A stretch of 64,000 nt of DNA, from positions 448,545 through 512,544 of the forward strand of contig JAOAGT010000002.1 in assembly GCA_026415615.1 (NCBI GenBank). The letters are read 5' to 3'. A model generated the notes under the pieces. The model saw only the letters and a program-made list of their open reading frames with translations. It searched no databases and was not told the origin of the DNA. Position numbers and translations under genes: made by a program. The stretch is from Thermoleophilia bacterium. GTDB taxonomy: Bacteria; Actinomycetota; Thermoleophilia; RBG-16-64-13. Positions 18,365 through 64,000 of this stretch are shown here, in pieces. How positions within the stretch are numbered: position 1 is the first letter of the stretch; each line of letters starts with the position of its first letter.

Positions 18365-18458
18365 ACTTGGGTCTTGCCTGGTTCCGCAGGATGGCAAACC
18401 ACCCCGATCCGCCTAGCCTACGACCTGTCTAGCCTATGGCTGGCTAATCCAGGCACCT

Positions 18459-19839: not shown

Positions 19840-19908
19840 CTACTAGCACACGCTACTAGCGAATGCAACCGGTCTGTGTTATGTAGGACAGGTAATCGAG
19901 TTACTAGA
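19840..19908. promoter_or_regulatory. repeated CTACTAGC / TTACTAGA boxes in the TetR-TRAP divergent region (candidate TetR operator)
   Basis: CTACTAGC at 19840-19847 and 19853-19860 (13-bp period). TTACTAGA at 19901-19908. Confidence 0.35.
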
Positions 19909-19971
19909 CAGCGTTCTTACCAGGGCAAGATGCTTCCCTCGGTACTGGGAATGAAAGGCGTGACACACAAC

Positions 19972-20832: not shown

Positions 20833-20836
20833 ATAG

Positions 20837-22093: not shown

Positions 22094-22123
22094 CAAAGCA
22101 CAGGAAAGCTTAGGAATGAAACC

Positions 22124-22858
22124 ATGGACCTCAAGTTGAAGGATAAAGTTGCGCTCGTTACAGGAGCAGGGAGTCCCATAGGCTATGGCAGGGCAATTGC
22201 TCTCACCCTGGCCGAAGAGGGCTGTCGAGTTGCCTGTGCTGACCTACGACTTGACTGGGCAGAGGAGACCGCTGCCCTAATCAGAGAGGCAGGCGGCGAA
22301 GCCTTCGCAGTCAAGGTTGACGTGACCGACATGGCCCAGGTGGAGGCCATGGTGGAGGCGGTTGTTGCCCGATACGGGCGGATCGACATTCTCGTTAACA
22401 ACGCTGGCAAAAGCAGCATCGACAAACCTTTCATGGAAAAGACCCGGGCAGACTGGGATCTCGATATTCAGGTGAATTTGTATGGCCAAATGAACGTGGC
22501 GCGCGCAGTGATTCCTCACATGGCCAGGCAAGGCTATGGGCGCATCATTAACACTTCCGGCGGGCAGGGCTTGCCGACCGTATCCACTTACGGAGCAGCC
22601 AAAGCAGGGGTGGAAGCATTTACACATTCGTTGGCCATGGAGGTTGCCTCCTTGGGGATCATCGTAAACGCCATTGCCCCGGGGCTGGGGGAGACCGGCC
22701 TGATTTCGGCCAGCGAAGAACACAAAGAGGGGTATCGGCGTATGTCGGCCCTAAAACGCCTTTGCACTCCAGCCGACGTGGCACCTGCGGTGGCGTTTCT
22801 AGCTTCGGATGTTTGTAGCTACATGGTTGGGCAGTGCCTCAGGTTGAGTACCCACTAG
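22124..22858 (+). CDS. short-chain dehydrogenase/reductase (SDR)
   Basis: 244 aa. TGAGSPIGYG, NNAG and YGAAKAGV. Confidence 0.9.
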   Translation: MDLKLKDKVALVTGAGSPIGYGRAIALTLAEEGCRVACADLRLDWAEETAALIREAGGEAFAVKVDVTDMAQVEAMVEAVVARYGRIDILVNNAGKSSIDKPFMEKTRADWDLDIQVNLYGQMNVARAVIPHMARQGYGRIINTSGGQGLPTVSTYGAAKAGVEAFTHSLAMEVASLGIIVNAIAPGLGETGLISASEEHKEGYRRMSALKRLCTPADVAPAVAFLASDVCSYMVGQCLRLSTH

Positions 22859-23095: not shown

Positions 23096-23133
23096 GTCTC
23101 GCGGAGTAACAAAGGCGAGTGGGAAGGAAAGAC

Positions 23134-24849: not shown

Positions 24850-24900
24850 CTGGTAGTTGGATAGGCGGCCCTCAACGGTAAAGGAGGCGGGAAGAGCGCG

Positions 24901-26367: not shown

Positions 26368-26429
26368 GCTTTGCTTCTGAGGCGAGGCCTGTTGGTGAGA
26401 CATTGGTCGTAGCAGAAGGAAGGAGCGAG

Positions 26430-27704: not shown

Positions 27705-27721
27705 GAAGGAGGTCGAAAGCC

Positions 27722-40735: not shown

Positions 40736-41587
40736 CTACTTGCTAAGCACAATGTCGCCCAGGTTGACAGACGTGAAAGTCCTTGCCTCTAGCACCTGGT
40801 CCTTGTAACCAGCCATTGAAACCGTGAGCTTGTACTTGGTATTGGCTGGCAGCCCGTCGAACTCAAAATCGCCGAAGCCGTCGGTGACTTTGGTTTGCTT
40901 GGCGCCAGTCGGATTCCCGTCCACATCAAGCTCCTCAAGCGTCACCGTCGCTCCCTTGGCGCACTCATCGGTGTCGCCAAGGACTACGCACCCGGCTATG
41001 AAGCTCTTGGGCAACCCGATATAGCGGACCTTCTCTTTTAGACCAAATTCGGGATGAAGCACCTCGGTCTGGCTTGAGGCAAGCAGTTTCGAGATGGCGC
41101 TGTTTGGATCATCCAGGTCGCCAAAGACAAGAGCTCCGGTGGGGCATGCCTCCACGCAGCGAGGCTCCTTCCACCCAGCATCCAGAAGGTGGGCACAGAA
41201 CGTGCATTTCTGGGGTAGCTGGGACTCCTCGTTCCAGAAGATCACCCTGTACGGGCAACGGTTAACGAGTTCCTTTTGGCCCTTGGCCTTGACGGGATCA
41301 ATGATCACTATGCCGTCGTCACGCTTGTAGACGGCGCCATCTCGCGAAGCCGCCACACAGGGGGCGTCATCGCAGTGCATGCAAGGGATGGCCGTATAGT
41401 CAACCTTGACCTTGGGGTACTGGCCCCGCTGGGTCTCAATGACGTTCATCCAAGTCTGCCCGGTCAGAGGCTGGGCCGCCGCATACGGGCTGTGATCATT
41501 GCCGCAATGCTCGTCCTTGCAGGCAATGAAGCAGTTGTAGCACCCAATACAGTGGGCGACGTCGATCACCATTCCGTACCTGGTCAT
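40736..41587 (-). CDS. Fe-S subunit of a pyrogallol-transhydroxylase-type molybdoenzyme (BthL-like): 4Fe-4S ferredoxin domains plus a C-terminal beta-sandwich domain
   Basis: 283 aa. CIGCYNCFIACKDEH, CMHCDDAPC and CTFCAHLLDAGWKEPRCVEACP. The C-terminal ~85 aa (GATVTLEELDVDGNPTG..TKVTDGFGDFEFDGLPANTKYKLTVSMAGY) are carboxypeptidase-regulatory-like. RBS GGGAGG lies inside the upstream gene end, with a 1-nt gap. Confidence 0.8.
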   Translation of the reverse strand: MTRYGMVIDVAHCIGCYNCFIACKDEHCGNDHSPYAAAQPLTGQTWMNVIETQRGQYPKVKVDYTAIPCMHCDDAPCVAASRDGAVYKRDDGIVIIDPVKAKGQKELVNRCPYRVIFWNEESQLPQKCTFCAHLLDAGWKEPRCVEACPTGALVFGDLDDPNSAISKLLASSQTEVLHPEFGLKEKVRYIGLPKSFIAGCVVLGDTDECAKGATVTLEELDVDGNPTGAKQTKVTDGFGDFEFDGLPANTKYKLTVSMAGYKDQVLEARTFTSVNLGDIVLSK

Positions 41588-41588
41588 C

Positions 41589-44107: not shown

Positions 44108-45331
44108 CTAGTCGACTGGTGCTGCGTTCAGCAAGGCCATGTCCGTCGTTGCAAATCCATGCAGGAAGCTGTAGACGTCCCTTAGATGCTTGCTGAAGGG
44201 CACGTCGTCATCAGTTGTACCGTATCCGCCGAAGATGCCGCACGCGTGGTTGACAAACTCCACGCCGATTTGGTCGACAAAGGCCTTGACCAGCATTCCG
44301 ATCTTCGGATTGTAGTCGTGCTTTGTCTGGTACGACCAGGCACCCTTCCAGAGCAGCGCCCGAGCCGCCTCAAGCTTGGCCTGCATGTCGGCGATCTTCA
44401 TGGCGACATGGTGATGCTGAATGATGGGCTTTCCGCCCTGCACCCGCTTCTTAGCGTAGTCCAGAGCCTCTTCATAAATTGCCCTCACCGTGCCCAGGTT
44501 GGCAGCAGCGCCCAGGAGCCCAAACGGCGGTGGAACTCCTTGCGGGGTCTTGGACCAGTCTTTCTGCGGGCCTCCCCACTCGCCTTCGGTTCCCCAAGCC
44601 TCGCCTTCCTTACCTACGAGGTAGCGGGCCGGAATCCGAGCGTTCTCGAAAACTAGCTCAGCGTTGGCAAGCAGCCTCCTACCCAACTTGTTGTGGAACC
44701 GGCCGATCCGCAACCCTGGGGTGTCGTGCGGCACGAGGAAGCAGCTCAGGCTGGTGGAGATGGGGCCCTTCCTGTCGGTACGGGCATACAGGAAATAAAG
44801 CTTGGCGATGCCGCCGCAGGAAATGTAATGCTTAGTGCCGTTAATAATGTATTCGTCGCCTACTCTTTCGGCATAGGTTTGAATTGAGGCTCCCGGCTCG
44901 TCGTAGAGGAAGTGAGAGTCGGTTCCCGCCTCCGGCTCGGACCGCGCCAGACCCAGGAGGAAGGTGTCGTCTTCCAGGAACTTTGGCAACCACTCGTCGC
45001 GCTGTTCAGGTGTGAGCTCCCCGACAAGTCGTGGAGACTCGGTGTAGCAGCCGCGGATGATGGTGGCAAAGCCCTGGTCTGCCACTCCCAGTTCCTCGAG
45101 GACGATGCAGAGAGTAAGGTAATCCGCGCCTCCGCCTCCCCACTTCTCAGGGATGGCAAGAGTACGAAGACCAAGCTGCGAAGCCTTCTTGATCAGGTCC
45201 CACGGGACACAGTCAATCGGGTTCGGCCGCCGGTCGTACTCCATGGCCACGGGCTTCACCTCGTTCTCGGCGAAATCCCGCACCATGTCGCGGATCATCT
45301 GTTGTTCTTCGGTTAGATAAAAATCAACCAT
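44108..45331 (-). CDS. acyl-CoA dehydrogenase-fold flavoprotein, atypical
   Basis: 407 aa, RBS GGAAGGAGGA. N-terminus LTEEQQMIRDMVRDFAENEVKP is classic ACAD. C-terminus RDVYSFLHGFATTD sits where IYEGT (catalytic Glu) is expected. There is a Gly/Trp/Pro-rich insertion in the middle. Confidence 0.8.
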   Translation of the reverse strand: MVDFYLTEEQQMIRDMVRDFAENEVKPVAMEYDRRPNPIDCVPWDLIKKASQLGLRTLAIPEKWGGGGADYLTLCIVLEELGVADQGFATIIRGCYTESPRLVGELTPEQRDEWLPKFLEDDTFLLGLARSEPEAGTDSHFLYDEPGASIQTYAERVGDEYIINGTKHYISCGGIAKLYFLYARTDRKGPISTSLSCFLVPHDTPGLRIGRFHNKLGRRLLANAELVFENARIPARYLVGKEGEAWGTEGEWGGPQKDWSKTPQGVPPPFGLLGAAANLGTVRAIYEEALDYAKKRVQGGKPIIQHHHVAMKIADMQAKLEAARALLWKGAWSYQTKHDYNPKIGMLVKAFVDQIGVEFVNHACGIFGGYGTTDDDVPFSKHLRDVYSFLHGFATTDMALLNAAPVD

Positions 45332-45605
45332 GCAATTCCTATCCTCCTTCCAGCACCGAGAGGCTGCCGCCGACGTTGGCTAGATCACCGGAGGTCCGGT
45401 GGTTGCTGTAGCTGAAGACCAGCCCAGCAACTAGCTCCATCATAGTACTTGTTGTTGCTGCGCGGGCCGTTTTAAGTCAACTTGTCATGACTTGGCCAAA
45501 CTATTACGGGAAGGTATGAATCCGGACCGCTGCCAGAGCTAGACGAATCTGGACTGCCGTCAGCACCAGATCAAGGTGGAATGTTGCCGCCACGAGACAC
45601 TCGGG

Positions 45606-46490
45606 CTAGCCCCGCTGGACAATGGCGCTCTTTATGTGGAGCATTAGGGCGCGGGCCGCTGCCGGGAGGGGCCGGTCGCGGGGATAGATAAGAGTAAGGT
45701 CTCGGTAGAGAGGACGTTCAAACGGGACCACTACCAGATCTTCAGCATTATCTGCGGTGGCAAGCATTTTTGGCATGGGAGCAACCCCAAAACCTTTGCT
45801 TACCAAAGCCTTGATCAGCTCTGGGTAATTGGCACGATAGGAGAAGCGAGGCTCCACGCCTGCTCGCCGCAGGGCGTCGGCTGCAATGTTCCCCGCATTC
45901 ATGGTGGTACGCGGGAGAAGTATCGATTCTCCAGCAAGCATCTTGAGCGGAACGCGGGGGAGGCGAGCCAACCGGTGGTTTCGCGGCACCACAAGCACTA
46001 TTTCTTCTGTAAGAAGATGCTGCGCAGCAGTGCGTGACGAACCCCAGGGAGTTATTACCGCGCAGTCGAGTTCCCCACGAATGACTGCCTCTTCGAGCTG
46101 AGCGTCATCCTTTTCCACGAGGTCTACACTGACATGGGGATAGGCTTCCAAGAACGAAACTAGAATAGGAGTAAGAAGCAGTGCCATGACGTTGCCGACG
46201 GCGCCAAAACGCACCGAACTGGATGTGGCTCCGGCCTGTTCGCGTATGAGAGCGATGGCCTCCTCGGTTCGGGCGACGATTGCTTGGGCCAAGGGCAATA
46301 AGAGCTGGCCGGCTGCGGTGCATTCCACGTGCCGTCCGTATCGCTCAAAGAGCTGAGCTCCCAGCTCACGCTCTAGTCGCGCTATCTGCCTGCTCAGGGT
46401 AGGCTGCGTGGAGTGCATAGCGCGAGCCGCCCGGCTGAAACTTCGGGCTTCGGCTACGGCAAGAAAGGATTTGAACAGCTCCAGGTCCAT
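45606..46490 (-). CDS. LysR family transcriptional regulator
   Basis: 294 aa. FLAVAEARSFSRAARAMHSTQPTLSRQIARLERELGAQLFER. Confidence 0.95.
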   Translation of the reverse strand: MDLELFKSFLAVAEARSFSRAARAMHSTQPTLSRQIARLERELGAQLFERYGRHVECTAAGQLLLPLAQAIVARTEEAIALIREQAGATSSSVRFGAVGNVMALLLTPILVSFLEAYPHVSVDLVEKDDAQLEEAVIRGELDCAVITPWGSSRTAAQHLLTEEIVLVVPRNHRLARLPRVPLKMLAGESILLPRTTMNAGNIAADALRRAGVEPRFSYRANYPELIKALVSKGFGVAPMPKMLATADNAEDLVVVPFERPLYRDLTLIYPRDRPLPAAARALMLHIKSAIVQRG

Positions 46491-46640
46491 CTATGCAATA
46501 TGGTAATACTTCTTGCTAGCCATGAAAAGTTCCATACAAAACTCAACTTGCTGTTGGCATAGGGCTATCATGTATAAAGCCCGTTTCTGCGGGCGGGGGT
46601 CGTTTCCAGGTATGCCTTGAAAAAAAGGAATGGATGACTC

Positions 46641-47417
46641 ATGAACATTGTAGTTTGCGTGAAACAAGTTATCGACACCGAAGCCGAAAACAGGCTCAAC
46701 CCGGAGACGTGGCGCGTAGACCGCAGCGTCAATTGCATTCTCAACCCCTATGACGAGTATGCAGTGGAAGAAGCGCTAAGGCTTCAAGAGGCGCACGGCG
46801 GCCAGGTTACTGTGGTTTGCATGGGACCAGAGAAGGCTGCTGAGGCCGTGCGGAAGGCTCTGGCCATGGGAGCAGACAGCGCCGTGCTGGTGAGCGACGA
46901 AGCTTTGGCCGGTTCCGATGTGCAGGGTACCGCGTATGCGCTGGCGGAAGCTCTCAAGGGGCTAACCTTTGATCTCCTGATTTTCGGCAACCGTTCCACC
47001 GACGGCGAAACAGGGTGCGTACCTGCAGCTGTGGCCGAGCGACTGGGCATTCCGTTCTTGTCTTGCTTGTCCAAGGTCGAGGTCAACGGGAACACCCTAT
47101 CTGTCCATCGGGAAACAGACCAAGGCCATGTTGCGTATGAATGCCCGCTGCCGGCTGCCATTTCGGTGGTCAAGGGAATCAATGAGCCTCGGTATCCAAG
47201 CATCAAGGGCATCATGACCGCAAAGAAAAAGCCGCTCGACGTCAAGAATGTGGCGGCTCTTGGTCTGGACGCTGGCCAAGTAGGGGCTGCCGGGGCAAAG
47301 ACCAAGGTCCTGACAGCAACCGTTCCAGAGCCACGCAAGGCTGGGGTCAAGATTGAGGACGACGGTTCAGGCGGCAAGCGCATAGCTGAGTTCTTGGCTG
47401 GCGCCAAGCTCATCTAG
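46641..47417 (+). CDS. etfB: electron transfer flavoprotein beta subunit
   Basis: 258 aa. MNIVVCVKQV.D.......NPYDEYAVEEALRL. Followed by etfA. Confidence 0.95.
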   Translation: MNIVVCVKQVIDTEAENRLNPETWRVDRSVNCILNPYDEYAVEEALRLQEAHGGQVTVVCMGPEKAAEAVRKALAMGADSAVLVSDEALAGSDVQGTAYALAEALKGLTFDLLIFGNRSTDGETGCVPAAVAERLGIPFLSCLSKVEVNGNTLSVHRETDQGHVAYECPLPAAISVVKGINEPRYPSIKGIMTAKKKPLDVKNVAALGLDAGQVGAAGAKTKVLTATVPEPRKAGVKIEDDGSGGKRIAEFLAGAKLI

Positions 47418-47434
47418 GAAGGGGAGATAGAACC

Positions 47435-48424
47435 GTGAGCAACAAGACTGGGATCCTGGTTGTAGCTGAGCCCGGCCAAGGCCGGCTGGCTAACGTTACT
47501 CTCGAAAGCATTACTCAAGCTCGGGTGCTTGCGGCGTCCCTGGGCGGGCCCGTGAGTGTGGCCGTGATCTCCTCTGAAGCGGCTCCTCTGGTGGCTCAGG
47601 CTGGACGGTTTGGGGCAGACAAAGTCTACGTGGTAGAGAGCCCCGAACTTAGCGTATTCCGGTCCGGCACGTTTGCTGATGCTGCCACGGCGGCGATCAA
47701 AGCGGCAGACCCGGCGGTGGTGCTCTTTTCTAATTCGAACGATGGTCGGGATGTGGCAGCAGCGTGTGCTGCTCGTCTGGGCGTAGGACTCTTGGTGGAC
47801 GTCACCGATTTGCAGGTGAAAGACGGGACGCTTCGAGCTTATCATCCGTGCTTTGGTGGGCGGATGATTGCTGAAAAAGAGGCCACTTCCGTTCCCGTCA
47901 TGGTCACGGTCCGGCCAAGCGCGTTTGCGCGCGAAGAGGCTCCTAAGGAACCCGAGGTTGTCCCGCTTGCTGTTGATTTTGGGCCGACAAGCCTCGCTGC
48001 AAAGATAGTGGATGTGGTCACCGAGAGTCTCGGGGAAATTGCCCTCGAGGAGGCTTCGGTCATCGTAGCCGGTGGACGCGGAGTGGGAAGCGCAGAGGGA
48101 TTTGGCGTCTTGCGCGAATTGGCCAAAGAGCTGGGGGCTGCGGTGGCAGCGAGCCGAGCTGTGGTGGATCTCGGTTGGATGCCTCACCAGAGCCAGGTTG
48201 GCCAGACGGGCAAGACCGTTTCGCCGCAGCTTTATATTGCCTGCGGGATTTCCGGGTCCATCCAGCACCGAGCTGGTATGCAGACTTCCAAATGCATCGT
48301 GGCCATCAACAAAGACCCCGAGGCGCCCATCTTTTCCATTGCCGACTTTGGCGTGGTGGGAGATCTCTTTGCTGTCGTGCCGGCGCTGACCGAGGAAATT
48401 CGTCGTCGCAAAGCGGGAGCCTAA
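47435..48424 (+). CDS. etfA: electron transfer flavoprotein alpha subunit
   Basis: 329 aa, GTG start after GGAAGGGGAG. C-terminal FAD site [19 protein letters not shown]. Confidence 0.95.
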
Positions 48425-48488
48425 AGCAATGTGCGCGAAAGCCCTCGCAGCGGTTAAGGTTTGGTCCTTAGAGTAGGAGGGTGCGCCG

Positions 48489-50180
48489 ATGACTCAAGAA
48501 CGAGAGGTAATGGAGGTCGATGTCCTCTATGTGGGCGGAGGCGTTGCCTCTCTAAGTAGCGCTCTTCACCTGTCAAATCTTATTAATGCTCACAACGCCA
48601 AGGGCGAGGGCAAGAAGCTTGATGAGGTTATGGTAGCGGTCCTCGAGAAGGGGGCCTACTTTGGAGCTCACGGCATTTCCGGAGCAGTGATGGCTCCTGG
48701 CCCGCTTAAAGAGCTGATACCCGACTACTTAGACAAAGGCGCCCCCATTGAGGGAGAGGTAACAAAAGAATCCATCTACCTTCTGACCGAGCGGGGCAAG
48801 ATTAAGTCTCCCATTACTCCTCCTCCACTTAATAACCACGGCAACGTCGTCATATCCATGGCGAAGATGAATCAATGGCTGGCTGGCCTAGTGGAGGAGA
48901 ACGGCGTTTACATGTTCCCCAGCTTTGCTGGAGTTGAGCTTCTCTACGACGGGGACAGGGTCATTGGAGTTCGCACTGGAGACAAGGGAGTTGGCCCCGA
49001 CGGGCAAAAGAAGCCCAACTATGAACCGGGAGCCGACGTCATCGCCCGGGTGGTCGTGTTAGGCGAGGGTTCGCGTGGAAGCTTGACCAAAGAGGTCATA
49101 AAGCGTTTCGGGCTTGATCGCGGCAAGAACCCGCCAGGATTTGAGGTTGGTGTAAAAGAGGTTTGGGAGATACCTGCTGGTCGTATCGAGCCTGGCGAAG
49201 TAATCCACACCATGGGGTATCCGCTCAAGAGCGATACTTTTGGCGGGGGCTTCATCTACGGTATGAAAGACAATCTGGTGTGCCTCGGCCATCTCACCAG
49301 TCTGGATTATTCAGATCCTTTCATTGATCCCCACCGCGAGTTCCAGCGTTTTAAGCTTCATCCTTTGGTGAGAGGACTACTGGAGGGCGGCAAGCTTGTC
49401 CAGTACGGGGCCAAGACTGCGCCAGTGGGTGGATATTACTCGATTCCCAAGCTCACCTTCCCTGGCGGTTTGCTAATTGGTGACGGCGCCAACCTCTTCA
49501 ACGCCCAGAAAATCAAAGGCGTGGATATAGCTATGCGGTCAGGAATGCTGGCTGCAGAGGTTATTTTCGCTGCACTGGTTAACGACGATTTTTCTGAGTC
49601 CCGCCTTGCGGCGTACGAGCAGGCCATGGCTGAGACCAAGGAAATGAAGGACCTGTACAAGGTGCGGAATTTCCATCAAGCCATGACGCGCGGGCTGTAT
49701 TTGGGCCTGCTTACCGCGGCTGCTCAGTATGTTCTGGGAGGGCGAGTACTTAAGAACAGGTTGCCTGCTACTCCGGATCATACCCACCTGAAAACTGTCG
49801 CGGAGAAGTACGGCACAACTACCCCGAGCCCCGAGGCGGTGCGCGACTTCAAGTATGACGGCAAGCTCACTTTTGACAAAGAGACAGACGTTTACTACTC
49901 GGGAACGGTTCACGAAGAAGCTCAGCCCTCTCATCTCAAGATAAAGAGCTTGGACATTTGCTACGGGGAGTGCGCTACACGTTATCAATATCCTTGCGTC
50001 AGGTTCTGTCCAGCCGGGGTCTATGAGATTGAGGTGGACGAGTCTACCGGGCAGAAGTCGCTCAAGATTAACTTCTCAAACTGCGTTCATTGCAAGACGT
50101 GTGATGTGAAGGATCCTTTCGAGAACATCCAATGGGTGCCCCCGGAAGGAGGAGGAGGTCCCAAGTACACAGTCGTGTAG
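48489..50180 (+). CDS. electron transfer flavoprotein:quinone oxidoreductase (ETF dehydrogenase, FixC-FixX fused type)
   Basis: 563 aa. VLYVGGGVASLSSA FAD fold. C-terminal ferredoxin-like CPAGVYE...CVHCKTCD...I.W..PEGG.GP.Y. Confidence 0.9.
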   Translation: MTQEREVMEVDVLYVGGGVASLSSALHLSNLINAHNAKGEGKKLDEVMVAVLEKGAYFGAHGISGAVMAPGPLKELIPDYLDKGAPIEGEVTKESIYLLTERGKIKSPITPPPLNNHGNVVISMAKMNQWLAGLVEENGVYMFPSFAGVELLYDGDRVIGVRTGDKGVGPDGQKKPNYEPGADVIARVVVLGEGSRGSLTKEVIKRFGLDRGKNPPGFEVGVKEVWEIPAGRIEPGEVIHTMGYPLKSDTFGGGFIYGMKDNLVCLGHLTSLDYSDPFIDPHREFQRFKLHPLVRGLLEGGKLVQYGAKTAPVGGYYSIPKLTFPGGLLIGDGANLFNAQKIKGVDIAMRSGMLAAEVIFAALVNDDFSESRLAAYEQAMAETKEMKDLYKVRNFHQAMTRGLYLGLLTAAAQYVLGGRVLKNRLPATPDHTHLKTVAEKYGTTTPSPEAVRDFKYDGKLTFDKETDVYYSGTVHEEAQPSHLKIKSLDICYGECATRYQYPCVRFCPAGVYEIEVDESTGQKSLKINFSNCVHCKTCDVKDPFENIQWVPPEGGGGPKYTVV

Positions 50181-50836: not shown

Positions 50837-51580
50837 ATGGTTGTGCGGGAAAAGCAAGTAAAGAGCATTTTGTCTCCCTCCAAGGTCTACGACTATGCGC
50901 TTAACCCGTACGTAGGATGTGAGCACGCATGCGCATACTGCTATGCCCGCTTCATGCGCCGGTTTACTGGTCACCGGGAGCCGTGGGGCGAGTTTGTGGA
51001 CGTGAAAACCAATGCGCCAGATTTGCTTCGCCGGGAAATTATGCGAAAGCCTGTGGGTACAGTGTGGGTGAGCGGGGTTTGTGATCCCTATCAGCCGCTT
51101 GAGCGCCAATACAGGCTCACGCGCCAGTGCCTTGAAATCTTGGTGGAGAACCAGTGGCCCATCTGTGTTCAGACTCGGTCTCCTCTCGTGTTGCGAGATC
51201 TGGACGTTTTGCGTCTGGGATCACGGTTGGAGGTCGGTTTTACGATCACCACCGGTGACGACGAAATCAGGCGCCTGTTTGAGCCTCGTGCATCGAGCGT
51301 GCAAGAGCGGCTGGAAGGTCTTGCAGTGCTACACGAGGCGGGAATAAAGACCTTCGCCATGATTGCTCCTATCTTGCCCGGCGCCGAGAAACTGCCCAAG
51401 TTACTCGCTGGCAAGGTAGATCACATTCTTGTGGACCGGCTAAACTACGACTACGGCAATTGGGTCTACAAACAGCACGAACTTGAGTACGCTCGCACAG
51501 ACGCTTACTTCGAGTCCGTTGCCAGAGAACTCGCGGCTGATTGCGCACGACTAGGCATTCCGTGCCGAGTGGTGTTCTAG
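50837..51580 (+). CDS. radical SAM protein (SPL / DNA-photolyase-like subfamily)
   Basis: 247 aa. LNPYVGCEHACAYCYA (CxxxCxxC). Confidence 0.8.
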   Translation: MVVREKQVKSILSPSKVYDYALNPYVGCEHACAYCYARFMRRFTGHREPWGEFVDVKTNAPDLLRREIMRKPVGTVWVSGVCDPYQPLERQYRLTRQCLEILVENQWPICVQTRSPLVLRDLDVLRLGSRLEVGFTITTGDDEIRRLFEPRASSVQERLEGLAVLHEAGIKTFAMIAPILPGAEKLPKLLAGKVDHILVDRLNYDYGNWVYKQHELEYARTDAYFESVARELAADCARLGIPCRVVF

Positions 51581-51643
51581 TCGAACTCTAGCGGCTGTTA
51601 TGATGCCGGAGATGTCGAACAAACTGTGATGGAGAGTGGGGGT

Positions 51644-54199
51644 ATGATCGCGCGCACTACGGCCTGGTCAGCGGGCCCCGGCTGCCACGGAGGGTGCGGG
51701 GTTCTAGCTTATGTTGAGGACGGCAGACTGGTAAAGGTGGAAGGGGATCCGGATCATCCCATCAACCGGGGACGGCTCTGCGCCCGGTGTCTGGCGATGC
51801 CCCAGTACATCTATCACCCGGATCGCCTACGCAGTCCCAGGATTAGAGTTGGCGAGCGCGGCGAGGGAAAGTGGAAAGACATCTCTTGGGAGGAGGCCTT
51901 CGACTATATAGAGGAAAGAATGAAGGCCATCCGAGACAAGCATGGGGCCGAAAGCGTGCTGTTTGCTATGGGCACCGGTCGTGATGTCGGGGCCTGGATC
52001 TGTTTGCTTGCTTACAACTATGGGAGTCCCAACGTAGTTTTTGCCCTATCCGGAATCGGATGCTACACGCCTCGTATTGTGGCCTCCGAGACAGTGTTGG
52101 GTGACTACTGCGTGTTTGACGGTGGGCAGTGGCTTCCGCAGGGACACGATGATCCGGCGTACCGAGTGCCGGAGTGCATCGTTATCTGGGGTTACAACAT
52201 TAACGCCTCTTGCCCAGACAATATCTTTGGTCACTGGGTGACCGATCTCATGAAAAAGGGCTCCAAGCTCATCACGATCGATCCCCGTCTTACCTTTTTT
52301 GCTTCGCGAGCCGACAAGTGGCTTCAGCTTAGGCCTGGTACAGATGGTGCCCTGGCTATGGGCTTTCTCAATGTGATCATCGAAGAAGGACTCTACGACA
52401 AGGAGTTTGTAGAGAAGTGGACAAATGCTCCCCATCTGATCCGGACCGACACAGGTACGCTCTTGCGCGCTTCGCACCTGGTTGCTGATGGCTCGCCTGA
52501 CGACTTTGTGGTCTGGGATCTTGCCGGTGGACGTCCTGCTATATGGGATTCGGCCAACGTGGAGTTTCGCAGTCCTGGGGTGACTCCTGCGTTGGAAGGA
52601 AGCTTTACCGTGCGTCTGGCTGACGGTTCCTCGGTTACCACTGAGACGGTGTGGTCGCTGTTCTGCAGGGAAGTCGCCAAGTATCCTGTGGAGGAGGTTG
52701 CGAGAATCACCTGGCTCAAGCCGGACGATATCAGAGAAGCTGCCCGTCTATATGCCACGAGCAAACCCGCCACCATCCAGTGGGGCGTGGCAATTGATAT
52801 GACTCCGGCCATAACTCCCACCTCAATGGCTATTGCCGACCTTTGGTGCATTACCGGCAACCTTGACGTGCCGGGGGGAAATGTGATTGCGCGCCCGGCT
52901 TTTGGGGCAGTGCCGTACGCTCTACCTGGGCAAAGGGGGCCTATCCGGCTGCCCGATGAAAGCATCGACGAAAAGCGCATAGGTCGAGACCGTTACGGAG
53001 CTCTAAGAGAGTTCATTTGGCGGGCCCACACCGATCTTGCGTTGGAACAGATCTTTACCGGAGATCCGTACCCGATTAAGGGAATGTGGATTCAGTGCTG
53101 CAACTTGGTAGGAGGCATAGGGTACGACCCGGAGCGATGGGTGAGGGCTTTGAAGAAGCTCGACTTTGTCGCTGTGGTGGACACTTTCATGACGCCTACT
53201 GCGGAGCTTGCGGACATCGTGCTACCCGCGGCTACTTTCTTAGAAAAGAACGGAGTGCGCAGCTGGTGGACTCCGCTTGAGGCCATTGTCAAGGTTGTTG
53301 AAGTGGAAGGGTGCAAACCGGACAACGAAATCAACTTTGAGCTTGCCAGGCGCTTTAATCCAAACATGAAGTGGAAGTCCTGCGATGAGCTTCTGGACGA
53401 GATCGTAAGTCCAGCGGGCGTGACCTTCAAAGAGCTTGCCGAGAAGGGCTGGATTCTTCCTCCTGATGGTCATCCGAGCGCTCCCTACCGCCGACACGAG
53501 CGCGGTTTACTTCGGCCCGACGGAAAGCCTGGCTTTAAAACTCCATCGGGCAAGGTAGAGCTCTACTCAGTCTTGCGGGAAAAATGGGGGTTTGAGCCCT
53601 TGCCACACCACGAGGAGCCGCCTTTTAGTCCGGTGGCGAGCCCAGACCTCTTCCAGCGATATCCGCTTATTCTCACCACTGGGAGGCGCTCTCCCGTGTA
53701 CTTTAACTCCGAGCATCGCAATATCCCTTGGCTTCGTGAGGCCGACCCCGACCCAGTGGTTGAACTTCATCCTGAGACTGCCGCTGCCCTAGGCATCGGC
53801 GATGGCGAGTGGGTCTGGATAGAGAACATGTTTGGGCGGTGTCGACTGAAAGCCAAGCTCACGCGTGTAGTGCCGCGCTGGCTAGCCTCTGCTACGCATG
53901 GATGGTGGTACCCAGAGAGAGAAGGTGCCGAGCCGTCGCTGCGGGGAGTTTGGGACTCAAGCACAAATCAACTGCTTCCTATGGGCTATCAGGGCAAAGA
54001 CGGATTGGGGACCCATGCCAAGTGCACCATCTGCCGGGTCTATCGGGCCCACACCGCTCCTCCCAGCGCCTATGCCATGCCAGAGGGCGGTGTCATTGGT
54101 GGAGTACTAAAGCCGAGATCGGTGCCTCATGGTGCGGCTCCAGGCCACGCCTCGGCGCCGGCCGGATCGGCGGGGCGGGAAGACAGAGAGGAGAAGTAA
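51644..54199 (+). CDS. molybdopterin oxidoreductase (DMSO reductase superfamily), cytoplasmic, substrate unknown
   Basis: ATG 51644 after GGAGAGTGGGGG (the ORF-track start at 51626 is also possible). N-terminal Cys pattern GCHGGCG-x26-CARC, then typical MopB blocks (ISWEEAFDYI, GYN, LRPGTDGALA, C-terminal barrel). No twin-arginine signal and no in-frame TGA. Confidence 0.85.
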   Translation: MIARTTAWSAGPGCHGGCGVLAYVEDGRLVKVEGDPDHPINRGRLCARCLAMPQYIYHPDRLRSPRIRVGERGEGKWKDISWEEAFDYIEERMKAIRDKHGAESVLFAMGTGRDVGAWICLLAYNYGSPNVVFALSGIGCYTPRIVASETVLGDYCVFDGGQWLPQGHDDPAYRVPECIVIWGYNINASCPDNIFGHWVTDLMKKGSKLITIDPRLTFFASRADKWLQLRPGTDGALAMGFLNVIIEEGLYDKEFVEKWTNAPHLIRTDTGTLLRASHLVADGSPDDFVVWDLAGGRPAIWDSANVEFRSPGVTPALEGSFTVRLADGSSVTTETVWSLFCREVAKYPVEEVARITWLKPDDIREAARLYATSKPATIQWGVAIDMTPAITPTSMAIADLWCITGNLDVPGGNVIARPAFGAVPYALPGQRGPIRLPDESIDEKRIGRDRYGALREFIWRAHTDLALEQIFTGDPYPIKGMWIQCCNLVGGIGYDPERWVRALKKLDFVAVVDTFMTPTAELADIVLPAATFLEKNGVRSWWTPLEAIVKVVEVEGCKPDNEINFELARRFNPNMKWKSCDELLDEIVSPAGVTFKELAEKGWILPPDGHPSAPYRRHERGLLRPDGKPGFKTPSGKVELYSVLREKWGFEPLPHHEEPPFSPVASPDLFQRYPLILTTGRRSPVYFNSEHRNIPWLREADPDPVVELHPETAAALGIGDGEWVWIENMFGRCRLKAKLTRVVPRWLASATHGWWYPEREGAEPSLRGVWDSSTNQLLPMGYQGKDGLGTHAKCTICRVYRAHTAPPSAYAMPEGGVIGGVLKPRSVPHGAAPGHASAPAGSAGREDREEK

Positions 54200-59844: not shown

Positions 59845-59881
59845 GCGGGGCGGGGGCTTGTCTTGCAAGCCCCCGCCCCGC
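59845..59881. terminator. bidirectional terminator hairpin
   Basis: GCGGGGCGGGGGCTTG-TCTTG-CAAGCCCCCGCCCCGC (16-bp stem) between convergent genes. Confidence 0.75.
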
Positions 59882-59945
59882 AGTTTCTCTCCAGGACTCC
59901 CGCGCGAAGATACTTCCGCGCTTAAGCTAGATCTACGAAATACGT

Positions 59946-60884
59946 CTACGAAGTTTTTCTCGCCGGCTGGGCTTGTTTGCGCAGGTAGATGAACCAGTAC
60001 ATGAATCCCACCAAGACGGCCCCGCCAATAATGTTGCCAATTGTTACGGGGATGAGATTGTTCACGAAGAAGTTTCCCCAGGTAAGGTCGGGATAGTCGG
60101 CAGCAGTCTTGCCGATCGCCGTCCAGAAGGACTCCGGGGCAAGTGCTTTGATCGCTAGGCCCAGAGGAATGAAGTACATGTTTGCAATGCTGTGCTCGAA
60201 GCCTGCAGCGACGAAAGCAGTTATGGGCGGAATTATGGCCAATATACGGTCAGTAGTGCTGCGGGCGCTGTAGGTAAGCCAGACTGCCAAGCAGACAAGG
60301 GCATTACACATGATGCCCAAGACAAGAGCTTGGAAGAAATCTAGACCGGACTTGGTGTTGGCTATAGCAAGTGCTGTTGCGCCCACGACTCCGGACCCAA
60401 AGCGGTACTGCCCGGTGGCTAGCATGAGGCCCACGGTAGCCAGGGAGCCCACAAAATTTCCCACCCAGACGACCAGCCAGTTCCACAGTAGTCGCCGGGT
60501 GCTTACTTTTCGCCGGGCCCAAGCCATTACGATCAAATTGTTTCCCGTAAAAAGCTCGGCTCCGCCGATCACTACCAGCATGAGCCCGAGGCTAAAAGCT
60601 AGACCGCCGAGCAGTTTCACTATCCCATATGGTAGGGCGCCAGTAAGCCCGGCGGATCCGTCAACCGAGCGGAAATCCAAAGTGCCTGAGATTACGGTGG
60701 TTGAGAAAACTGCTCCCAGAGCAATAAAGGCGCCAGCTAGCACGGAAAGAGCAAACATCCGGGGGAAATCCATGTTTGCCTTAGACACGCCTATCTGTTC
60801 GGCCTTAGTTGCCATCTGTGAGGGGAGAAGGGCGTCAAAGGAAACGGCACCATGGCCGGGATGATTCCCCTGTGGTCTTCTCAT
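59946..60884 (-). CDS. formate/nitrite transporter (FNT) family channel
   Basis: Six TM helices with FNT blocks (FALSVLAGAFIALG, GAELFTGN, GNFVGS, FEHSIANMY, NLIPVTIGNIIGG). Preferred ATG 60884 overlaps the upstream stop (ATGA). Confidence 0.9.
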   Translation of the reverse strand: MRRPQGNHPGHGAVSFDALLPSQMATKAEQIGVSKANMDFPRMFALSVLAGAFIALGAVFSTTVISGTLDFRSVDGSAGLTGALPYGIVKLLGGLAFSLGLMLVVIGGAELFTGNNLIVMAWARRKVSTRRLLWNWLVVWVGNFVGSLATVGLMLATGQYRFGSGVVGATALAIANTKSGLDFFQALVLGIMCNALVCLAVWLTYSARSTTDRILAIIPPITAFVAAGFEHSIANMYFIPLGLAIKALAPESFWTAIGKTAADYPDLTWGNFFVNNLIPVTIGNIIGGAVLVGFMYWFIYLRKQAQPARKTS

Positions 60885-61534
60885 GCGCGGCTGAGCTTCT
60901 CGAGTGCTTGTTGGCACAGTCTTACTCCCTCCATTGCGTCGTTGGTCCAAAGGTCAGCGCCTATGTAGCGCGCGGTAGCTTCGTCGATAGTTCCCCCGCC
61001 TACGACTAACAGCGGCAAGTGTTCAAACTCCGAGGCGTGCTGACGGAAGAGCGCCACGGTTTCGTGCATAGAAGCAAAAGCAGCTGTGAGGAGACCGGAC
61101 ATGCCCACGATGTCGGGCTTGGACTCCCGTGCCGCTTCGAGAAACTCCTCTGGGGGTATGTTTACGCCAAGGTCACGGACAGAGAAGCCAAACATGCGAA
61201 ATGCCAAAGCTGCCATGTTCTTGCCGATATCGTGGATATCCCCAGCTACAGTACCAAGCAGCACTTTCCCCGAGGCTTCCCCAGTCCACTCGGCTTCGAG
61301 CCCTGGTCTTACCAGTTCCATAACGGTCCGGAAGATTTCGCCGGCCATTATGAGCCCGGACAAGTAGATTTCTTTTTGCTCGTACCTTTCTCCAACGCGG
61401 CGCATGCCTGCCTGCACAGCTCGCACCACCTCGACCGGGCTGGTGCCCTCTTTGAGGGCTTGTTCCACAAGGTCGAGGACTCGCTTGTCGTCTAGCTCCT
61501 CGACTGCGCCGCTTATCTGTTCCAAGACAAGCAT
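60881..61534 (-). CDS. corrinoid (cobalamin-binding) protein, MtaC/MtbC-like
   Basis: 217 aa. N-terminal helical cap, then DxHxxG (GDIHDIGKN), MSGLLT and VVGGG motifs. Confidence 0.9.
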   Translation of the reverse strand: MLVLEQISGAVEELDDKRVLDLVEQALKEGTSPVEVVRAVQAGMRRVGERYEQKEIYLSGLIMAGEIFRTVMELVRPGLEAEWTGEASGKVLLGTVAGDIHDIGKNMAALAFRMFGFSVRDLGVNIPPEEFLEAARESKPDIVGMSGLLTAAFASMHETVALFRQHASEFEHLPLLVVGGGTIDEATARYIGADLWTNDAMEGVRLCQQALEKLSRA

Positions 61535-61591
61535 CTACTCCTCCCGCAGCTTCCCCCTCCACGTCACCACGATGTCACCGCGCTGCGATGA

Positions 61592-62491
61592 TCATTTCCT
61601 GGCGCGAGCAAGCGGCGCCGATCGAGGTTCACGTGGTGGCACGGGACCTAGGTGGCTTGTTAGCTGAAATTGATCAGGCCGGCAGAGGAAACGGCCCCAA
61701 CTTAGCGGTCTGCCGTCAAAATCGTGGAACAAACTCTCTAAACACAACGCAGGCGAGCCAACGGGCAGCTCTAGATTAGCCGCGGCTTCGCTGTCCAGAC
61801 TGACAGCGCGTATGGTGAGCCAACCTCCGGGCAAGCCTTCGGCTCTGGCAGATCGCAGCAGGCCGGCAAGGGATGTAATCTGGAGTTCAACCTCAACTAG
61901 AGGTCGATGCTCATCGTAGAGTATGTAGGCCAGCTGGTAAATCAGGGGAGTTTGTTCCCGCTTCACTAGACGGCGTAAGTAGACAGTGGGCGTTCCCGTC
62001 TCGACCTCAAGCACGGCCGCCACCTCTTCGTCAGCCGGTTTGATCCTTGCCTCGAGCAATAGGACTTCGGCAGAGTCGTCCTCGGTCCACGACTCGGTAA
62101 TTTCTTGGAGGCGAAAGATCGCCTCTCCCATGTCAAGAGCACGCACGAACGTGCCCTTGCCCTGTACCGTGGTGACTAGACCTCTGTCGAGGAGCAGGCC
62201 GATGGCTCTGCGGACAGTCATAGGACTAACTCTGTACTGTGCCCGCAGCTGGGGCTCGGTCGGGAGTTGGTCCCCGGGGCGAAATACTCCGGCCGCAATC
62301 TGCTCCGAAAGAGCGTTTGCGATACGCACATAGGCCGGCTCATAAGAACGTTCTGATGGGTAACGAGGGCGACCTCGCTCAGACGCGGCTGGCGGAACAG
62401 GTTCCAAGTTCCCCTGCATGCCGCCATATCCCGCCTGCTGGCTTCGTCTTTGAGTCGGCGGGCCCGAAGCGTTGTTGAAGGGCTCTACCAC
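61592..62491 (-). CDS. GntR family transcriptional regulator (HutC/UTRA subfamily)
   Basis: YVRIANALSEQIAAGVFRPGDQLPTEPQLRAQYRVSPMTVRRAIGLLLDRGLVTTVQGKGTFV plus a C-terminal UTRA-like domain. GTG 62491 with GAGGAGG 13 nt upstream. The ~50-aa N-terminal extension leaves the start uncertain. Confidence 0.85.
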   Translation of the reverse strand: MVEPFNNASGPPTQRRSQQAGYGGMQGNLEPVPPAASERGRPRYPSERSYEPAYVRIANALSEQIAAGVFRPGDQLPTEPQLRAQYRVSPMTVRRAIGLLLDRGLVTTVQGKGTFVRALDMGEAIFRLQEITESWTEDDSAEVLLLEARIKPADEEVAAVLEVETGTPTVYLRRLVKREQTPLIYQLAYILYDEHRPLVEVELQITSLAGLLRSARAEGLPGGWLTIRAVSLDSEAAANLELPVGSPALCLESLFHDFDGRPLSWGRFLCRPDQFQLTSHLGPVPPREPRSAPLARARK

Positions 62492-62518
62492 TTATGTCCC
62501 ACAACCTCCTCGAACAAC

Positions 62519-62547
62519 TTGCACATTTATCTATATAACTATACAAT
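62519..62547 (+). promoter_or_regulatory. sigma-70-type promoter for fhs (-35 TTGCAC, 17-bp spacer, -10 TACAAT)
   Basis: TTGCAC 62519-62524 and TACAAT 62542-62547, read directly. About 105-nt leader to ATG 62658. Confidence 0.6.
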
Positions 62548-62565
62548 ACATCCCCGGACTGTCAA
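62538..62565 (-). promoter_or_regulatory. sigma-70-type promoter for the gntR-corrinoid-FNT operon (-35 TTGACA, 16-bp spacer, -10 TATAGT)
   Basis: Minus-strand TTGACA is the complement of 62560-62565 and TATAGT is the complement of 62538-62543. Its -10 overlaps the fhs -10 region. Confidence 0.6.
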
Positions 62566-62625: not shown

Positions 62626-62657
62626 GGGCGTACAAGCGTCGTAATGGAGCATAGCTG

Positions 62658-64000
62658 ATGAAGACGGAGTCGAGGATCAAGACTGACATCGAGATTGCTC
62701 ACGAAGCCACCCTGGTTCCCATCACTGAAATAGCTGCTGATCTAGGTCTATCTGCTGACGACATCGACCAGTATGGCAAATACAAAGCCAAGATACATCT
62801 GGATGTCCTTGAGCGTCTAAGCGACAGACCCGACGGCAAGCTCGTTCTCTGCACAGCGATCACCCCCACTCCGGCAGGAGAGGGAAAAACGACTACCAAC
62901 ATTGGCCTCTCCATGGCTCTGAACAAACTGGGCCGCAAAGCTGTATGCACTCTGCGCGAGCCGTCCTTGGGGCCCTGCTTTGGGATTAAAGGCGGTGCGG
63001 CTGGCGGCGGCTATGCCCAGGTTGTGCCCATGGAAGACATCAACCTTCATTTTACTGGAGATATTCACGCTATCGGAGCTGCGCACAATCTGTGTGCTGC
63101 GGTTCTGGACAACCACCTTTTCCAAGGAAACGAGCTTGACATTAATCCCAACGACATCCCCTGGCCTCGCGTGGTTGACTTGAACGACCGTGCGCTTCGT
63201 GACATTACCATCGGCCAGGGTGGCCAAGGCGTCGAGCGCAAGACTCGCTTCGACATCACTGTGGCCTCCGAAGTGATGGCTATCCTCTGCTTGGCTAACG
63301 ACTATGACGACCTGAAGGCCCGCCTTGAGCGTACCGTAGTAGCTTGGACCCACTCGGGTCAGCCTGTCACGGCCAAGGATCTCAAGGTTTCGGGGTCTAT
63401 GGCTGTTCTCTTGCGTGACGCACTCATGCCCAACCTGGTGCAGACGCTGGAAAATACTCCGGCGATTATTCATGGTGGTCCCTTCGCCAACATCGCTCAC
63501 GGATGCAATTCGGTGCAGGCTACCAAGATCGGTCTCAAGCTAGGTGACTACTGCGTCACCGAGGCCGGCTTTGGGGCTGATCTCGGGGCCGAGAAGTTCT
63601 TCGACATTAAGTGCCGCTACGCTGGTTTATCGCCAGACTGCGTAGTCTTGGTGGCAACCATTCGGGCTCTTAAGATGCACGGTGGTGTTCCGTTGGCGGA
63701 TCTTAAGACCGAGAATCTTGAGGCGCTCAGCCTCGGCATCGAGAACCTTGAAAAGCACCTCGAGAACATTCAGGGCTTTGGTATGCCGGTGGTTGTGGCC
63801 ATTAACCGCTTCCCCGATGACACCGAAGCGGAGCTTGAGCTTTTGCGGCAGAGAGTGGCTGCCATGGGAGCCAATGTAGTGCTATCTGAAGTCTGGGCCC
63901 ACGGCGGAGATGGCGGGCTTGAGCTGGCGGAGGAAGTCATTCGGTTGTGCGAGTCAGGAGAAAAACCACAGCTAAAGTTTACGTATGACCTTGAGGACAG
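62658..64000 (+). CDS. fhs: formate-tetrahydrofolate ligase (3' end outside window)
   Basis: Open to the window edge. [13 protein letters not shown]-loop, [39 protein letters not shown] and [15 protein letters not shown]. Confidence 0.95.

Follow-up and report, generated by a model that had tools for sequence, protein, structure and literature searches.

Three genes on the minus strand of the window (the whole 64-kb stretch of DNA analyzed here) encode a GntR/HutC-type regulator, a B12-binding protein, and a FocA-type channel of the formate/nitrite family (FNT), and they form one tightly packed, co-directional operon. On balance, the gene identities, the linkage of the first two genes in relatives, and a conserved palindrome in front of them suggest that the regulator and the B12-binding protein make up a two-protein corrinoid-sensing repressor module. 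This module would control a methyl/formate one-carbon (C1) supra-operon, with FocA as formate-handling cargo. We hold this reading with modest confidence.

The layout of the locus (Table 1) agrees with an earlier sequence-only reading, which had described three minus-strand genes in a single operon, a 57-nt gap between gntR and the B12-binding gene (61535-61591), an ATGA overlap between the latter and focA, a hairpin with a 16-bp stem behind the operon, and a divergent fhs. The fhs gene is the first gene of a C1 operon whose 3' part lies beyond the end of the window. The hairpin has a perfect 16-bp G+C stem (z = -5 for the region compared with shuffled sequence), is common to focA and the convergent CBS-domain gene, and on the FNT strand lacks a good U-tract. 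Its probable role is that of a bidirectional terminator. Horizontal insertion of focA was considered in a composition test and set aside in view of the uniform G+C content (54 to 59%).

TABLE 1 Features of the gntR-focA locus and its surroundings in the window
Feature	Position	Strand	Basis or remark
G+C-rich hairpin between convergent focA and CBS-domain genes	59845-59881	.	Stem of 16-17 bp
focA-type formate/nitrite-family channel gene	59946-60884	-	PF01226, TIGR04060; 312 aa from ATG 60884
ATGA overlap of B12-binding gene stop and focA start	60881-60884	-	Direct sequence reading
GntR-linked ("R-type") B12-binding protein gene	60881-61534	-	PF02607 + PF02310; 217 aa
Alternative focA start, GTG 60917-60915, with SD-like GGAGGGAG at 60932-60925	60915-60932	-	Within B12-binding gene
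GntR/HutC-subfamily regulator gene gntR	61592-62491	-	PF00392 + PF07702; GTG start
Candidate operator/promoter element, conserved, 27 nt, GTATAGTTATATAGATAAATGTGCAAG	62518-62544	-	Palindromic core CTATAnTTATATAG
Predicted fhs-directed promoter, weaker, TGCACA-16-TACAAT	62520-62547	+	Consensus match only, 9/12
Predicted gntR-operon promoter, TTGACA-16-TATAGT	62538-62565	-	Consensus match, 11/12
fhs (formate-tetrahydrofolate ligase)	62655-64000	+	Translation; cut by window end

The regulator consists of a winged helix-turn-helix domain (wHTH; PF00392, 71.8 bits) and a UTRA domain (PF07702, 71.7 bits). Its nearest NCBIfam models are PhnF and HutC, and it scores below every named equivalog cutoff (for PhnF, 126 against 157); among solved structures, it is closest to DasR and NagR/YvoA. 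A GAGGAGG stretch (62505-62511) lies ahead of the gntR start codon. The 27-nt element in the spacer between gntR and fhs has one copy in the window, against a chance expectation of 0.03 to 0.2. Upstream of gntR, such an element with an invariant TTATATAG is found in 46 loci overall, and it occupies the gntR-fhs spacer of every fhs-type locus. The -10 boxes predicted for the two divergent promoters overlap the palindrome, and that of the gntR operon lies inside it, so that GntR bound there would repress both promoters. Cobalamin, ZTP, and THF riboswitches were sought at the locus with Rfam, and none was found even at an E value of ≤1. That no riboswitch turned up as another explanation for control by B12 or C1 compounds counts in favor of the repressor-module reading.

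The B12-binding protein has a four-helix cap (PF02607) followed by a Rossmann B12 domain (PF02310). Its ligand motifs DxHxxG, SxL, and GG are kept, and the alignment shows no variation at D99, H101, G104, S146, L148, G179, and G180. Nevertheless, the protein falls under all NCBIfam corrinoid-protein cutoffs: it reached 124.4 against 215.3 for TIGR02370, 128 against 310 for the MtgC model, 113 against 350 for MtbC, and 84 to 90 against 420 to 450 for MtaC. The AlphaFold2 model (pLDDT, 87.8) found its best folds in 4JGI, MttC, and MetH, with a TM score of 0.79 to MtmC (3EZX), and the protein is 32 to 41% identical to 4JGI and 1Y80. The R-type copies share a signature of changed positions (Y51, G60, F68, M107, W196, G203, and C207), with every B12 ligand retained. 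In the cap helix over the upper corrin face, the carrier motif "F-x-PELI" is replaced by "YL(S/A)GLI". In relatives, the same loci also encode separate carrier corrinoid proteins, which are 33 to 36% identical to the R-type protein.

We surveyed about 90 loci from Actinomycetota, Chloroflexota, Bacillota, and Desulfobacterota. A scan of a genome collection with the family alignment and generic patterns, in which the best among the matches listed had 50 to 54% identity, contributed distant, O-demethylase-type loci. Every assessable B12 homologue (47 to 99% identity, with enough DNA upstream) follows a GntR+UTRA gene of the same orientation (87 of 87 clade members), and roughly 80 of the gene pairs are distinct. 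The spacing between the two genes is -4 in many loci and below 20 nt in most. In a neighbor-joining tree of 176 corrinoid proteins, 87 of the 89 GntR-linked copies lie on one side of a split, where none of the 79 unlinked copies is found; the O-demethylase carrier 4JGI and 1Y80 fall outside the R-type clade. Sampling for this tree was centered on the query, and a broader sample could make the edge of the clade less sharp. A mirror-tree comparison of GntR with the B12-binding protein gave a partial r of 0.61 (19 taxa), with a Spearman coefficient no higher than in the controls, and is only suggestive of coevolution. A search for genuine GntR-B12 fusions with a concatenated query found none. Three apparent fusions from one species (P0173, P0181, and P0184) are frameshift artifacts, as judged from their Arg-rich, out-of-frame junctions, and in another (locus L154) a TAG codon separates the genes. 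The module is carried by anaerobes that come from sediments, bioreactors, and subsurface metagenomes; one locus (L012) belongs to the cultured Desulfosarcina variabilis.

The constancy of the gntR-B12 pair contrasts with the gene that follows it. The third position holds focA in several lineages, and in others a formate dehydrogenase gene, an ABC transporter gene, or nothing. The order gntR-B12-FNT recurs in loci L165, L166, L173, and L174, whose B12-binding proteins are 99, 86, 69, and 67% identical to that of the window, and at least 10 contigs are apparently common to the FNT and B12 match lists. The sequence-only reading was to be given up if no relative conserved this adjacency, and several do, so that objection falls away. 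Its idea that the corrinoid gene and the channel form a meaningful pair fared worse: FNT linkage is confined to a minority of loci, whereas linkage to gntR is found in all assessable ones. The divergent operon of relatives runs fhs-fchA-folD-metV-metF-lpd, followed by a carrier corrinoid protein and methyltransferases of the URO-D or pterin-binding type. The separate carrier and methyltransferases are placed divergently in some loci and at the end of the fhs operon in others. The window itself contains a URO-D-family methyltransferase-like gene (20837-22093) that is an orphan, without a neighboring corrinoid protein. Loci without fhs carry no formate genes at all. With FocA or formate dehydrogenase in the downstream slot of relatives, the locus is a formate-linked C1 locus, as first proposed, and the corrinoid-dependent step that was also proposed is matched by the carrier and methyltransferases that end the fhs operon of relatives. 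The part of that proposal in which formate import feeds Fhs holds only as one option, since export after methyl-group oxidation fits equally well.

The channel itself is a full-length FNT protein (PF01226, 266 bits, profile positions 2 to 240 of 240). It lies barely over the cutoff of the FocA model TIGR04060 (292.1 against 290.1 bits) and below that of the enterobacterial FocA model PRK10805 (280 against 440). Among its homologues, the pore motifs "ELFTGNN" and "GFEHS" are invariant; their LFTG and FEHS parts presumably carry the conserved pore Thr and His (T91 and H209 in E. coli FocA). An N-terminal "DALLP..MA" motif is also conserved. The protein is 100% identical to an NCBI entry annotated as FocA of a Thermoleophilia bacterium (P0232), and translation from ATG 60884, with no other start codon lying between the preceding stop and the N-terminal motif, gives the same 312-aa product as that annotation. 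Both the motif and the annotation thus bear out the earlier preference for the ATG that overlaps the B12 stop codon. In L166 the overlap reads GTGA, so that a start codon is kept there; the gap is 3 nt in L174 and 45 nt in L173. Gene callers preferred a GTG 33 nt farther upstream (window position 60917) in L165 to L168. The SD-like run ahead of this GTG may be coincidental because it encodes the conserved AMEGV residues of the B12-binding protein. With either start, focA overlaps the B12-binding gene. FocA is best read as the product of a variable third ("cargo") gene with an accessory role in formate handling, interchangeable with formate dehydrogenase.

Under the repressor-module reading, gntR, the gene for the B12 sensor, and focA would be an autoregulated operon divergent from the C1 operon that starts with fhs. 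The GntR/HutC-type protein would bind the palindrome and hold both promoters in check. The B12-binding protein, made at a fixed ratio to the regulator, would serve as its signal-input partner and not as the methyl carrier of the pathway. Its corrinoid state, either apo versus holo or methyl-Co(III) versus demethylated, would alter the grip of the regulator on the operator, and expression of the methyl/formate pathway would be limited to conditions with cofactor or methyl flux. FocA would carry formate across the membrane as a substrate or product of Fhs. A more specific form of such sensing, which we consider unlikely, makes the R-type protein a decoy paralogue of the methyl carrier. In the presence of any methyl donor, be it a methoxylated substrate or methyl-THF, this protein would receive a methyl group from the pathway methyltransferases, and the change between the methyl-Co(III) and demethylated states would toggle the HutC-type repressor. 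If true, methyl flux could be sensed generically, with no need to recognize each substrate, and the same device would recur in different phyla, serving O-demethylase operons as well as the folate C1/formate operon.

The main rival to the repressor-module reading takes the B12-binding protein for an ordinary methyl carrier that shares a transcript with the regulator and the channel, while GntR alone senses a small molecule through UTRA. The protein could then be a second carrier for another methyltransferase or could act on the methyl-THF side of the pathway. We find this doubtful but worth serious weight. The domains are canonical, and a complete DxHxxG-SxL-GG set suits a catalytic carrier equally well; moreover, its closest solved relatives are the corrinoid modules of O-demethylase, MttC, and MetH, which are not known sensors. 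The locus is devoted to methyl/C1 metabolism, and the orphan URO-D-family gene lacks a neighboring corrinoid protein. Two further points count against the repressor-module reading: regulators are frequently cotranscribed with a pathway gene, and UTRA could respond to an ordinary small molecule, in which case no protein partner would be needed. An ordinary carrier is nonetheless hard to reconcile with a score under every curated corrinoid-protein cutoff, an altered cap-helix motif over the corrin, and membership in a clade of its own, every assessable member of which has gntR beside it. In loci with annotated flanks, the R-type gene is never next to a methyltransferase gene, whereas the distinct carrier is. 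The frequent overlap of the gntR stop codon with the following start codon across phyla is likewise hard to explain by shared transcription alone.

Two other roles for the B12-binding protein seem very improbable. It might act on the FocA channel as a partner, gate, or sensor, much as PflB does on the FocA N terminus, a role that the sequence-only reading had offered as an alternative. The ATGA and GTGA overlaps in the window and L166, the short gaps in L173 and L174, and the conserved N-terminal helix of FocA are compatible with such a role. Nothing in the comparison favors gating, however: most loci of the B12 clade have no FNT gene, and the link to gntR is universal. The gntR-B12 pair might instead be a light sensor of the CarH/LitR/AerR type that works through photolysis of the upper cobalamin ligand, and to this we give hardly any credence. 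A B12-binding protein is indeed encoded beside a transcription factor, and the fold search also matched the B12 domains of CarH/LitR photoreceptors, with about 20% identity. Against this, the CarH model NF052513 gave 34 bits (cutoff, 400), the best matches are methyl-transfer modules, and the cap region, as read in the alignment, lacks W...EH, the photoreceptor signature published for CarH. The hosts, moreover, are anaerobic, and the genes that would be under control are C1 or methyltransferase genes.

To our knowledge, little is known about the control of corrinoid methyltransferase systems and of the folate C1 branch in anaerobes outside a few methanogens. The loci described here point to an undescribed B12-dependent switch for C1 metabolism in anaerobes: a module conserved in at least four phyla, with a HutC-type putative repressor, a dedicated B12-binding partner, and a recognizable operator motif. 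In the literature on GntR/HutC regulators with corrinoid or B12-binding proteins, we found no functional study of such a module. Genome papers (PMC4791908, PMC9303578) mention in passing a clustering of GntR regulators and B12-binding genes with genes for methyltransferases, and a repressor module of this kind, if true, would account for these remarks. It would also join the CarH/LitR and AerR light sensors as a second family of proteins through which B12 controls transcription. Annotators would gain a rule that separates regulatory from catalytic corrinoid proteins, and the operator motif could be used to predict C1 regulons in Actinomycetota, Chloroflexota, and Bacillota that have not been cultured. 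The outcome for the channel is more ordinary, that of accessory cargo.

Among known systems, the regulator resembles DasR, NagR/YvoA, PhnF, and HutC in its wHTH and UTRA domains and in an AT-rich palindromic candidate operator that lies over a promoter. Autoregulation together with divergent target operons is typical of the GntR/HutC subfamily. The members known to us answer to small molecules bound by UTRA and need no protein partner, whereas the GntR clade of the window is invariably followed by a B12-binding gene. As in enterobacterial focA-pflB and methanogen fdhC-fdhAB, the FNT channel is encoded with genes of formate metabolism: fhs lies opposite, and fdh takes the same slot in sister lineages. 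There is no pfl here, however; the channel gene closes a regulator operon and at its start overlaps the B12-binding gene.

The B12-binding protein shares its architecture, size, and His-on DxHxxG motif with MtaC, MtbC, MtgC, MttC, and 4JGI, and it differs from them in its scores below the cutoffs, its separate clade, its altered cap, and its gntR neighbor. With CarH/LitR it has in common the cap and Rossmann fold and the proposed use of a B12 domain as input to a repressor at a promoter-overlapping operator. Those regulators are single-chain MerR fusions that respond to photolysis of AdoCbl, whereas the proteins of the window are separate. The closest parallel in organization is AerR-CrtJ (PpaA-PpsR) of purple bacteria, for which one study (PMC9144470) offers a precedent of a B12-binding coregulator of a transcription factor: a small B12 protein is encoded beside the factor, as two proteins with no fusion. 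An AerR-like role, in which the B12-binding protein would set the DNA binding of the regulator, is what we propose from the genes of this locus. The partner here is a GntR/HutC protein with wHTH and UTRA domains and not a PAS-HTH protein like PpsR/CrtJ, and the B12-binding protein comes from the methyltransferase-carrier lineage, as its identity to 4JGI and 1Y80 indicates. The targets of the module would be C1 and methyltransferase operons of anaerobes and not photosystem genes, and no role for light is expected.

The B12-binding gene lies between gntR and focA in a run of three tightly packed minus-strand genes. The sequence-only reading had proposed a single operon here, and this was borne out: the genes, the 57 nt separating gntR from the B12 gene, the ATGA that combines the B12-gene stop with the FNT start, the 16-bp hairpin, and the divergent fhs are all present. 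The sequence from the focA stop to this large hairpin contains a smaller 7-bp one (GCGCGGA...UCCGCGC-like). No Rfam family matched the locus region, even at an E value of ≤1; the sole match of the entire window at the gathering threshold was one tRNA gene.

Coordinates of features in the window and, where a locus handle is given, in relatives
Feature	Position	Strand	Details
tRNA gene	4472-4545		
Aldehyde:ferredoxin oxidoreductase block	14473-19736		oxidoreductase gene adjoins TRAP transporter genes (DctM, DctP)
TetR regulator	19876-20832		start of block 19876-22858
URO-D-family methyltransferase-like gene	20837-22093		orphan
SDR	22124-22858		end of block 19876-22858
Fumarate-reductase-type flavoprotein block	23119-29212		also holds two FAD_binding_4 oxidases and one CCG-domain protein
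Molybdopterin oxidoreductase	40736-44093		pyrogallol-hydroxytransferase-like N-terminal domain; 4Fe-4S subunit
Acyl-CoA dehydrogenase cluster	44108-50180		LysR regulator, ETF beta and alpha, ETF-quinone oxidoreductase (ETF-QO)
Second molybdopterin oxidoreductase	50837-54199		Fe4S4 domain; after radical-SAM gene
16-bp hairpin	59845-59881		G+C stem; between focA and convergent CBS-domain gene
7-bp hairpin	59902-59921		
focA-type FNT channel	59946-60884	-	PF01226 full length; TIGR04060 292.1 bits (cutoff, 290.1)
ATGA overlap	60881-60884		
B12-binding protein, 217 aa	60881-61534	-	PF02607 cap and PF02310 Rossmann domain; D99-x-H101-x-x-G104
GntR/HutC-type regulator	61592-62491	-	wHTH and UTRA domains
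Candidate operator	62518-62544		
fhs	start 62655	+	divergent; extends past window end
fhs-operon continuation	L171:121-2519; L172:1-2682; L174:1-1931		

Between the upstream stop and the N-terminal motif shared by FocA homologues (DALLP..MA), the sole start codon is ATG 60884. It yields a 312-aa protein, the same as in the NCBI annotation of the 100%-identical database protein P0232, "FocA [Thermoleophilia bacterium]." The start codon is retained in an 86%-identical relative, since the overlap there reads GTGA. Other gene callers output an alternative GTG start 33 nt upstream (equivalent to window position 60917); its SD-like GGAGGGAG is weak evidence for this start because it lies within B12-gene codons for the conserved AMEGV motif. 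Overlap with the B12 gene holds for both candidate starts.

We gathered ~170 loci by looking up individual database matches and by metagenome and genome scans (matches listed), and the window proteins were mapped onto them. More than 120 database proteins are related to the window B12 protein at 60 to 99% identity. A co-directional gene encoding a GntR regulator with a UTRA domain precedes every homologue of 47 to 99% identity that has enough upstream DNA. The two genes are <20 nt apart in most loci, with a 4-nt overlap of gntR stop and B12 start in many. At least four phyla are represented among the hosts of the matches listed in the genome scan; these hosts include Actinomycetota MAGs labelled "Actinomycetia" or "Thermoleophilia," Anaerolineae and Chloroflexia, Syntrophomonadaceae and other Bacillota, and Desulfosarcina variabilis. 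The B12 protein adjoining focA is the constant companion of the regulator, not of the channel. Three database proteins of one species (P0173, P0181, and P0184), considered as natural GntR-UTRA-B12-binding fusions, were rejected on their Arg-rich, out-of-frame junction stretches; they are artefacts produced by frameshifts in error-prone assemblies.

A neighbour-joining tree built from the 176 corrinoid proteins of all loci has a split with 87 of the 89 GntR-linked copies on one side (the 89 comprise 81 distinct sequences at <95% identity) and none of the 79 unlinked copies there; because locus sampling centred on the query, the sharpness of this boundary may be overstated. Neither 4JGI, the solved corrinoid protein of an O-demethylase, nor 1Y80 from Moorella belongs to the clade. 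GntR-linked proteins keep all cobalamin-binding residues and differ systematically at seven positions (Y51 for F, G60 for E, F68 for M, M107 for I, W196 for Y, G203 for A, and C207 for A). Because of such differences, the cap motif F-x-P-E-L-I of methyl-carrier corrinoid proteins becomes Y-L-(S/A)-G-L-I. The window protein scores under every curated corrinoid-protein cutoff. Its AF2 model is confident (pLDDT, 87.8) and best resembles methyl-transfer corrinoid modules (4JGI, MttC, MetH, and MtmC), with photoreceptor B12 domains resembling it at only ~20% identity. By descent, the protein belongs with methyltransferase corrinoid proteins.

Every gntR-fhs spacer contains CTATA(G/T)TTATATAG(A/T/C)TAAAT..GCAAG in the gntR orientation; the spacers are otherwise unalignable. 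In 46 loci, the 500 nt upstream of gntR contain the palindromic core (≤2 mismatches); among these 46 are roughly half of the methyltransferase-type loci of other phyla, in which the core reads TTATACACTTATATAGGGAAGT..CAAG. The window copy is unique in the 64 kb (0.03 to 0.2 copies expected by chance) and overlaps both the -10 box of a strong predicted gntR-directed promoter (TTGACA-16-TATAGT, 11/12) and a weaker predicted fhs-directed promoter. An operator over divergent promoters is the usual geometry of HutC-family repressors, and the palindrome is a candidate operator of such a repressor, placed as would fit control of divergent promoters. Some loci (L001, in its gntR-fhs spacer, L097, and L161) have two operator-like copies ~100 to 150 nt apart, an arrangement suggestive of looping or of cooperative binding.

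Within the lineage to which the window belongs, gntR-B12 and fhs-fchA(FTCD_C)-folD-metV(DUF5981)-metF-lpd are oriented divergently. Longer flanks show the fhs operon running past lpd into a different, carrier-type corrinoid protein and then methyltransferase genes, namely, in L171, DUF1638 and a pterin-binding methyltransferase and, in L172 and L174, a pair of URO-D-family methyltransferases. In these Actinomycetota, the "Wood-Ljungdahl methyl branch" cluster is therefore physically joined to a corrinoid methyltransferase system. In more distant loci, a second corrinoid protein and a URO-D-family methyltransferase are encoded divergently from gntR-B12 or next to it, accompanied by MFS or ABC transporters, DUF1638, or a pterin-binding enzyme. 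In both kinds of locus, the separate carrier adjoins the methyltransferases; it is only 33 to 36% identical to the GntR-linked protein, which was never found beside a methyltransferase gene among loci with annotated flanks.

Elsewhere in the window, the orphan URO-D-family gene has no adjoining corrinoid protein and is flanked by the TetR and SDR genes. A Pfam scan of the 30 largest remaining window ORFs revealed no acs, CFeSP, or pfl. The second molybdopterin oxidoreductase is just 28% identical to the formate dehydrogenase subunit of relatives. Relatives L169 and L170 also have ETF-QO close to the locus.

The third gene of the operon is variable cargo. focA lies downstream of the B12 gene in the window and in L165, L166, L173, and L174 (B12-protein identities of 99, 86, 69, and 67%), with gaps of 45 nt in L173 and 3 nt in L174, and at least six further contigs are common to the B12 and FNT match lists. 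Other downstream arrangements are a multi-subunit formate dehydrogenase (~11 loci), a Peripla_BP_6 ABC transporter, and no gene at all before the convergent CBS-proC-ftsH block (~10 loci). The ftsH-proC-CBS flanking synteny in relatives matches that of the window; focA therefore sits in an insertion slot, one that sister lineages fill with formate dehydrogenase. Across the region, G+C content is uniform. The corrinoid-channel pairing singled out by the sequence-only reading is recurrent, yet secondary to the gntR-B12 link. That reading's suggestion of a formate-linked C1 module is supported, and relatives do have a corrinoid-dependent step, as it envisaged, within the system. FocA may bring in formate for use by Fhs; alternatively, it may export formate from methyl-group oxidation via a reversed folate branch.

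The best explanation, which we regard as somewhat more probable than even, is a two-protein regulatory module of a HutC-type repressor and a corrinoid signal partner; beyond the gene context, we infer its steps. The repressor would sit on the palindrome, the co-translated corrinoid protein would provide the signal (cofactor availability or methylation state), and the two would jointly regulate both the methyl/folate/formate operon and the operon that encodes them together with FocA. That the B12 protein is instead an ordinary methyl carrier, cotranscribed with its regulator, is possible but rather doubtful: the intact B12 site and carrier-like fold agree with it, but the clade separation, the sub-threshold family scores, the separate carriers in the loci, and the universal, often overlapping gntR linkage argue against it. 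A role as gate partner of FocA is very improbable, given that FNT is absent from most loci, and a CarH-like light sensor is just as hard to credit in view of the sequence and host ecology.

Eubacterium methyltransferase genes have been described as "usually associated with" B12-binding proteins, transporters, and GntR regulators (PMC4791908, PMC9303578). Such co-occurrence remarks were all that a literature search of incomplete coverage returned on the GntR-B12 pair, with no functional study found. The notable feature of the locus is a conserved, apparently uncharacterised module of GntR/HutC regulator, B12-binding partner, and candidate operator. In the light-driven CarH/LitR, the B12 domain is fused. 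The closest functional analogue of the GntR-B12 pair is AerR-CrtJ, in which a stand-alone B12-binding protein acts as coregulator of a transcription factor (PMC9144470). By sequence, the window protein lies outside both the CarH/LitR and the AerR-type families; only the principle is in common.
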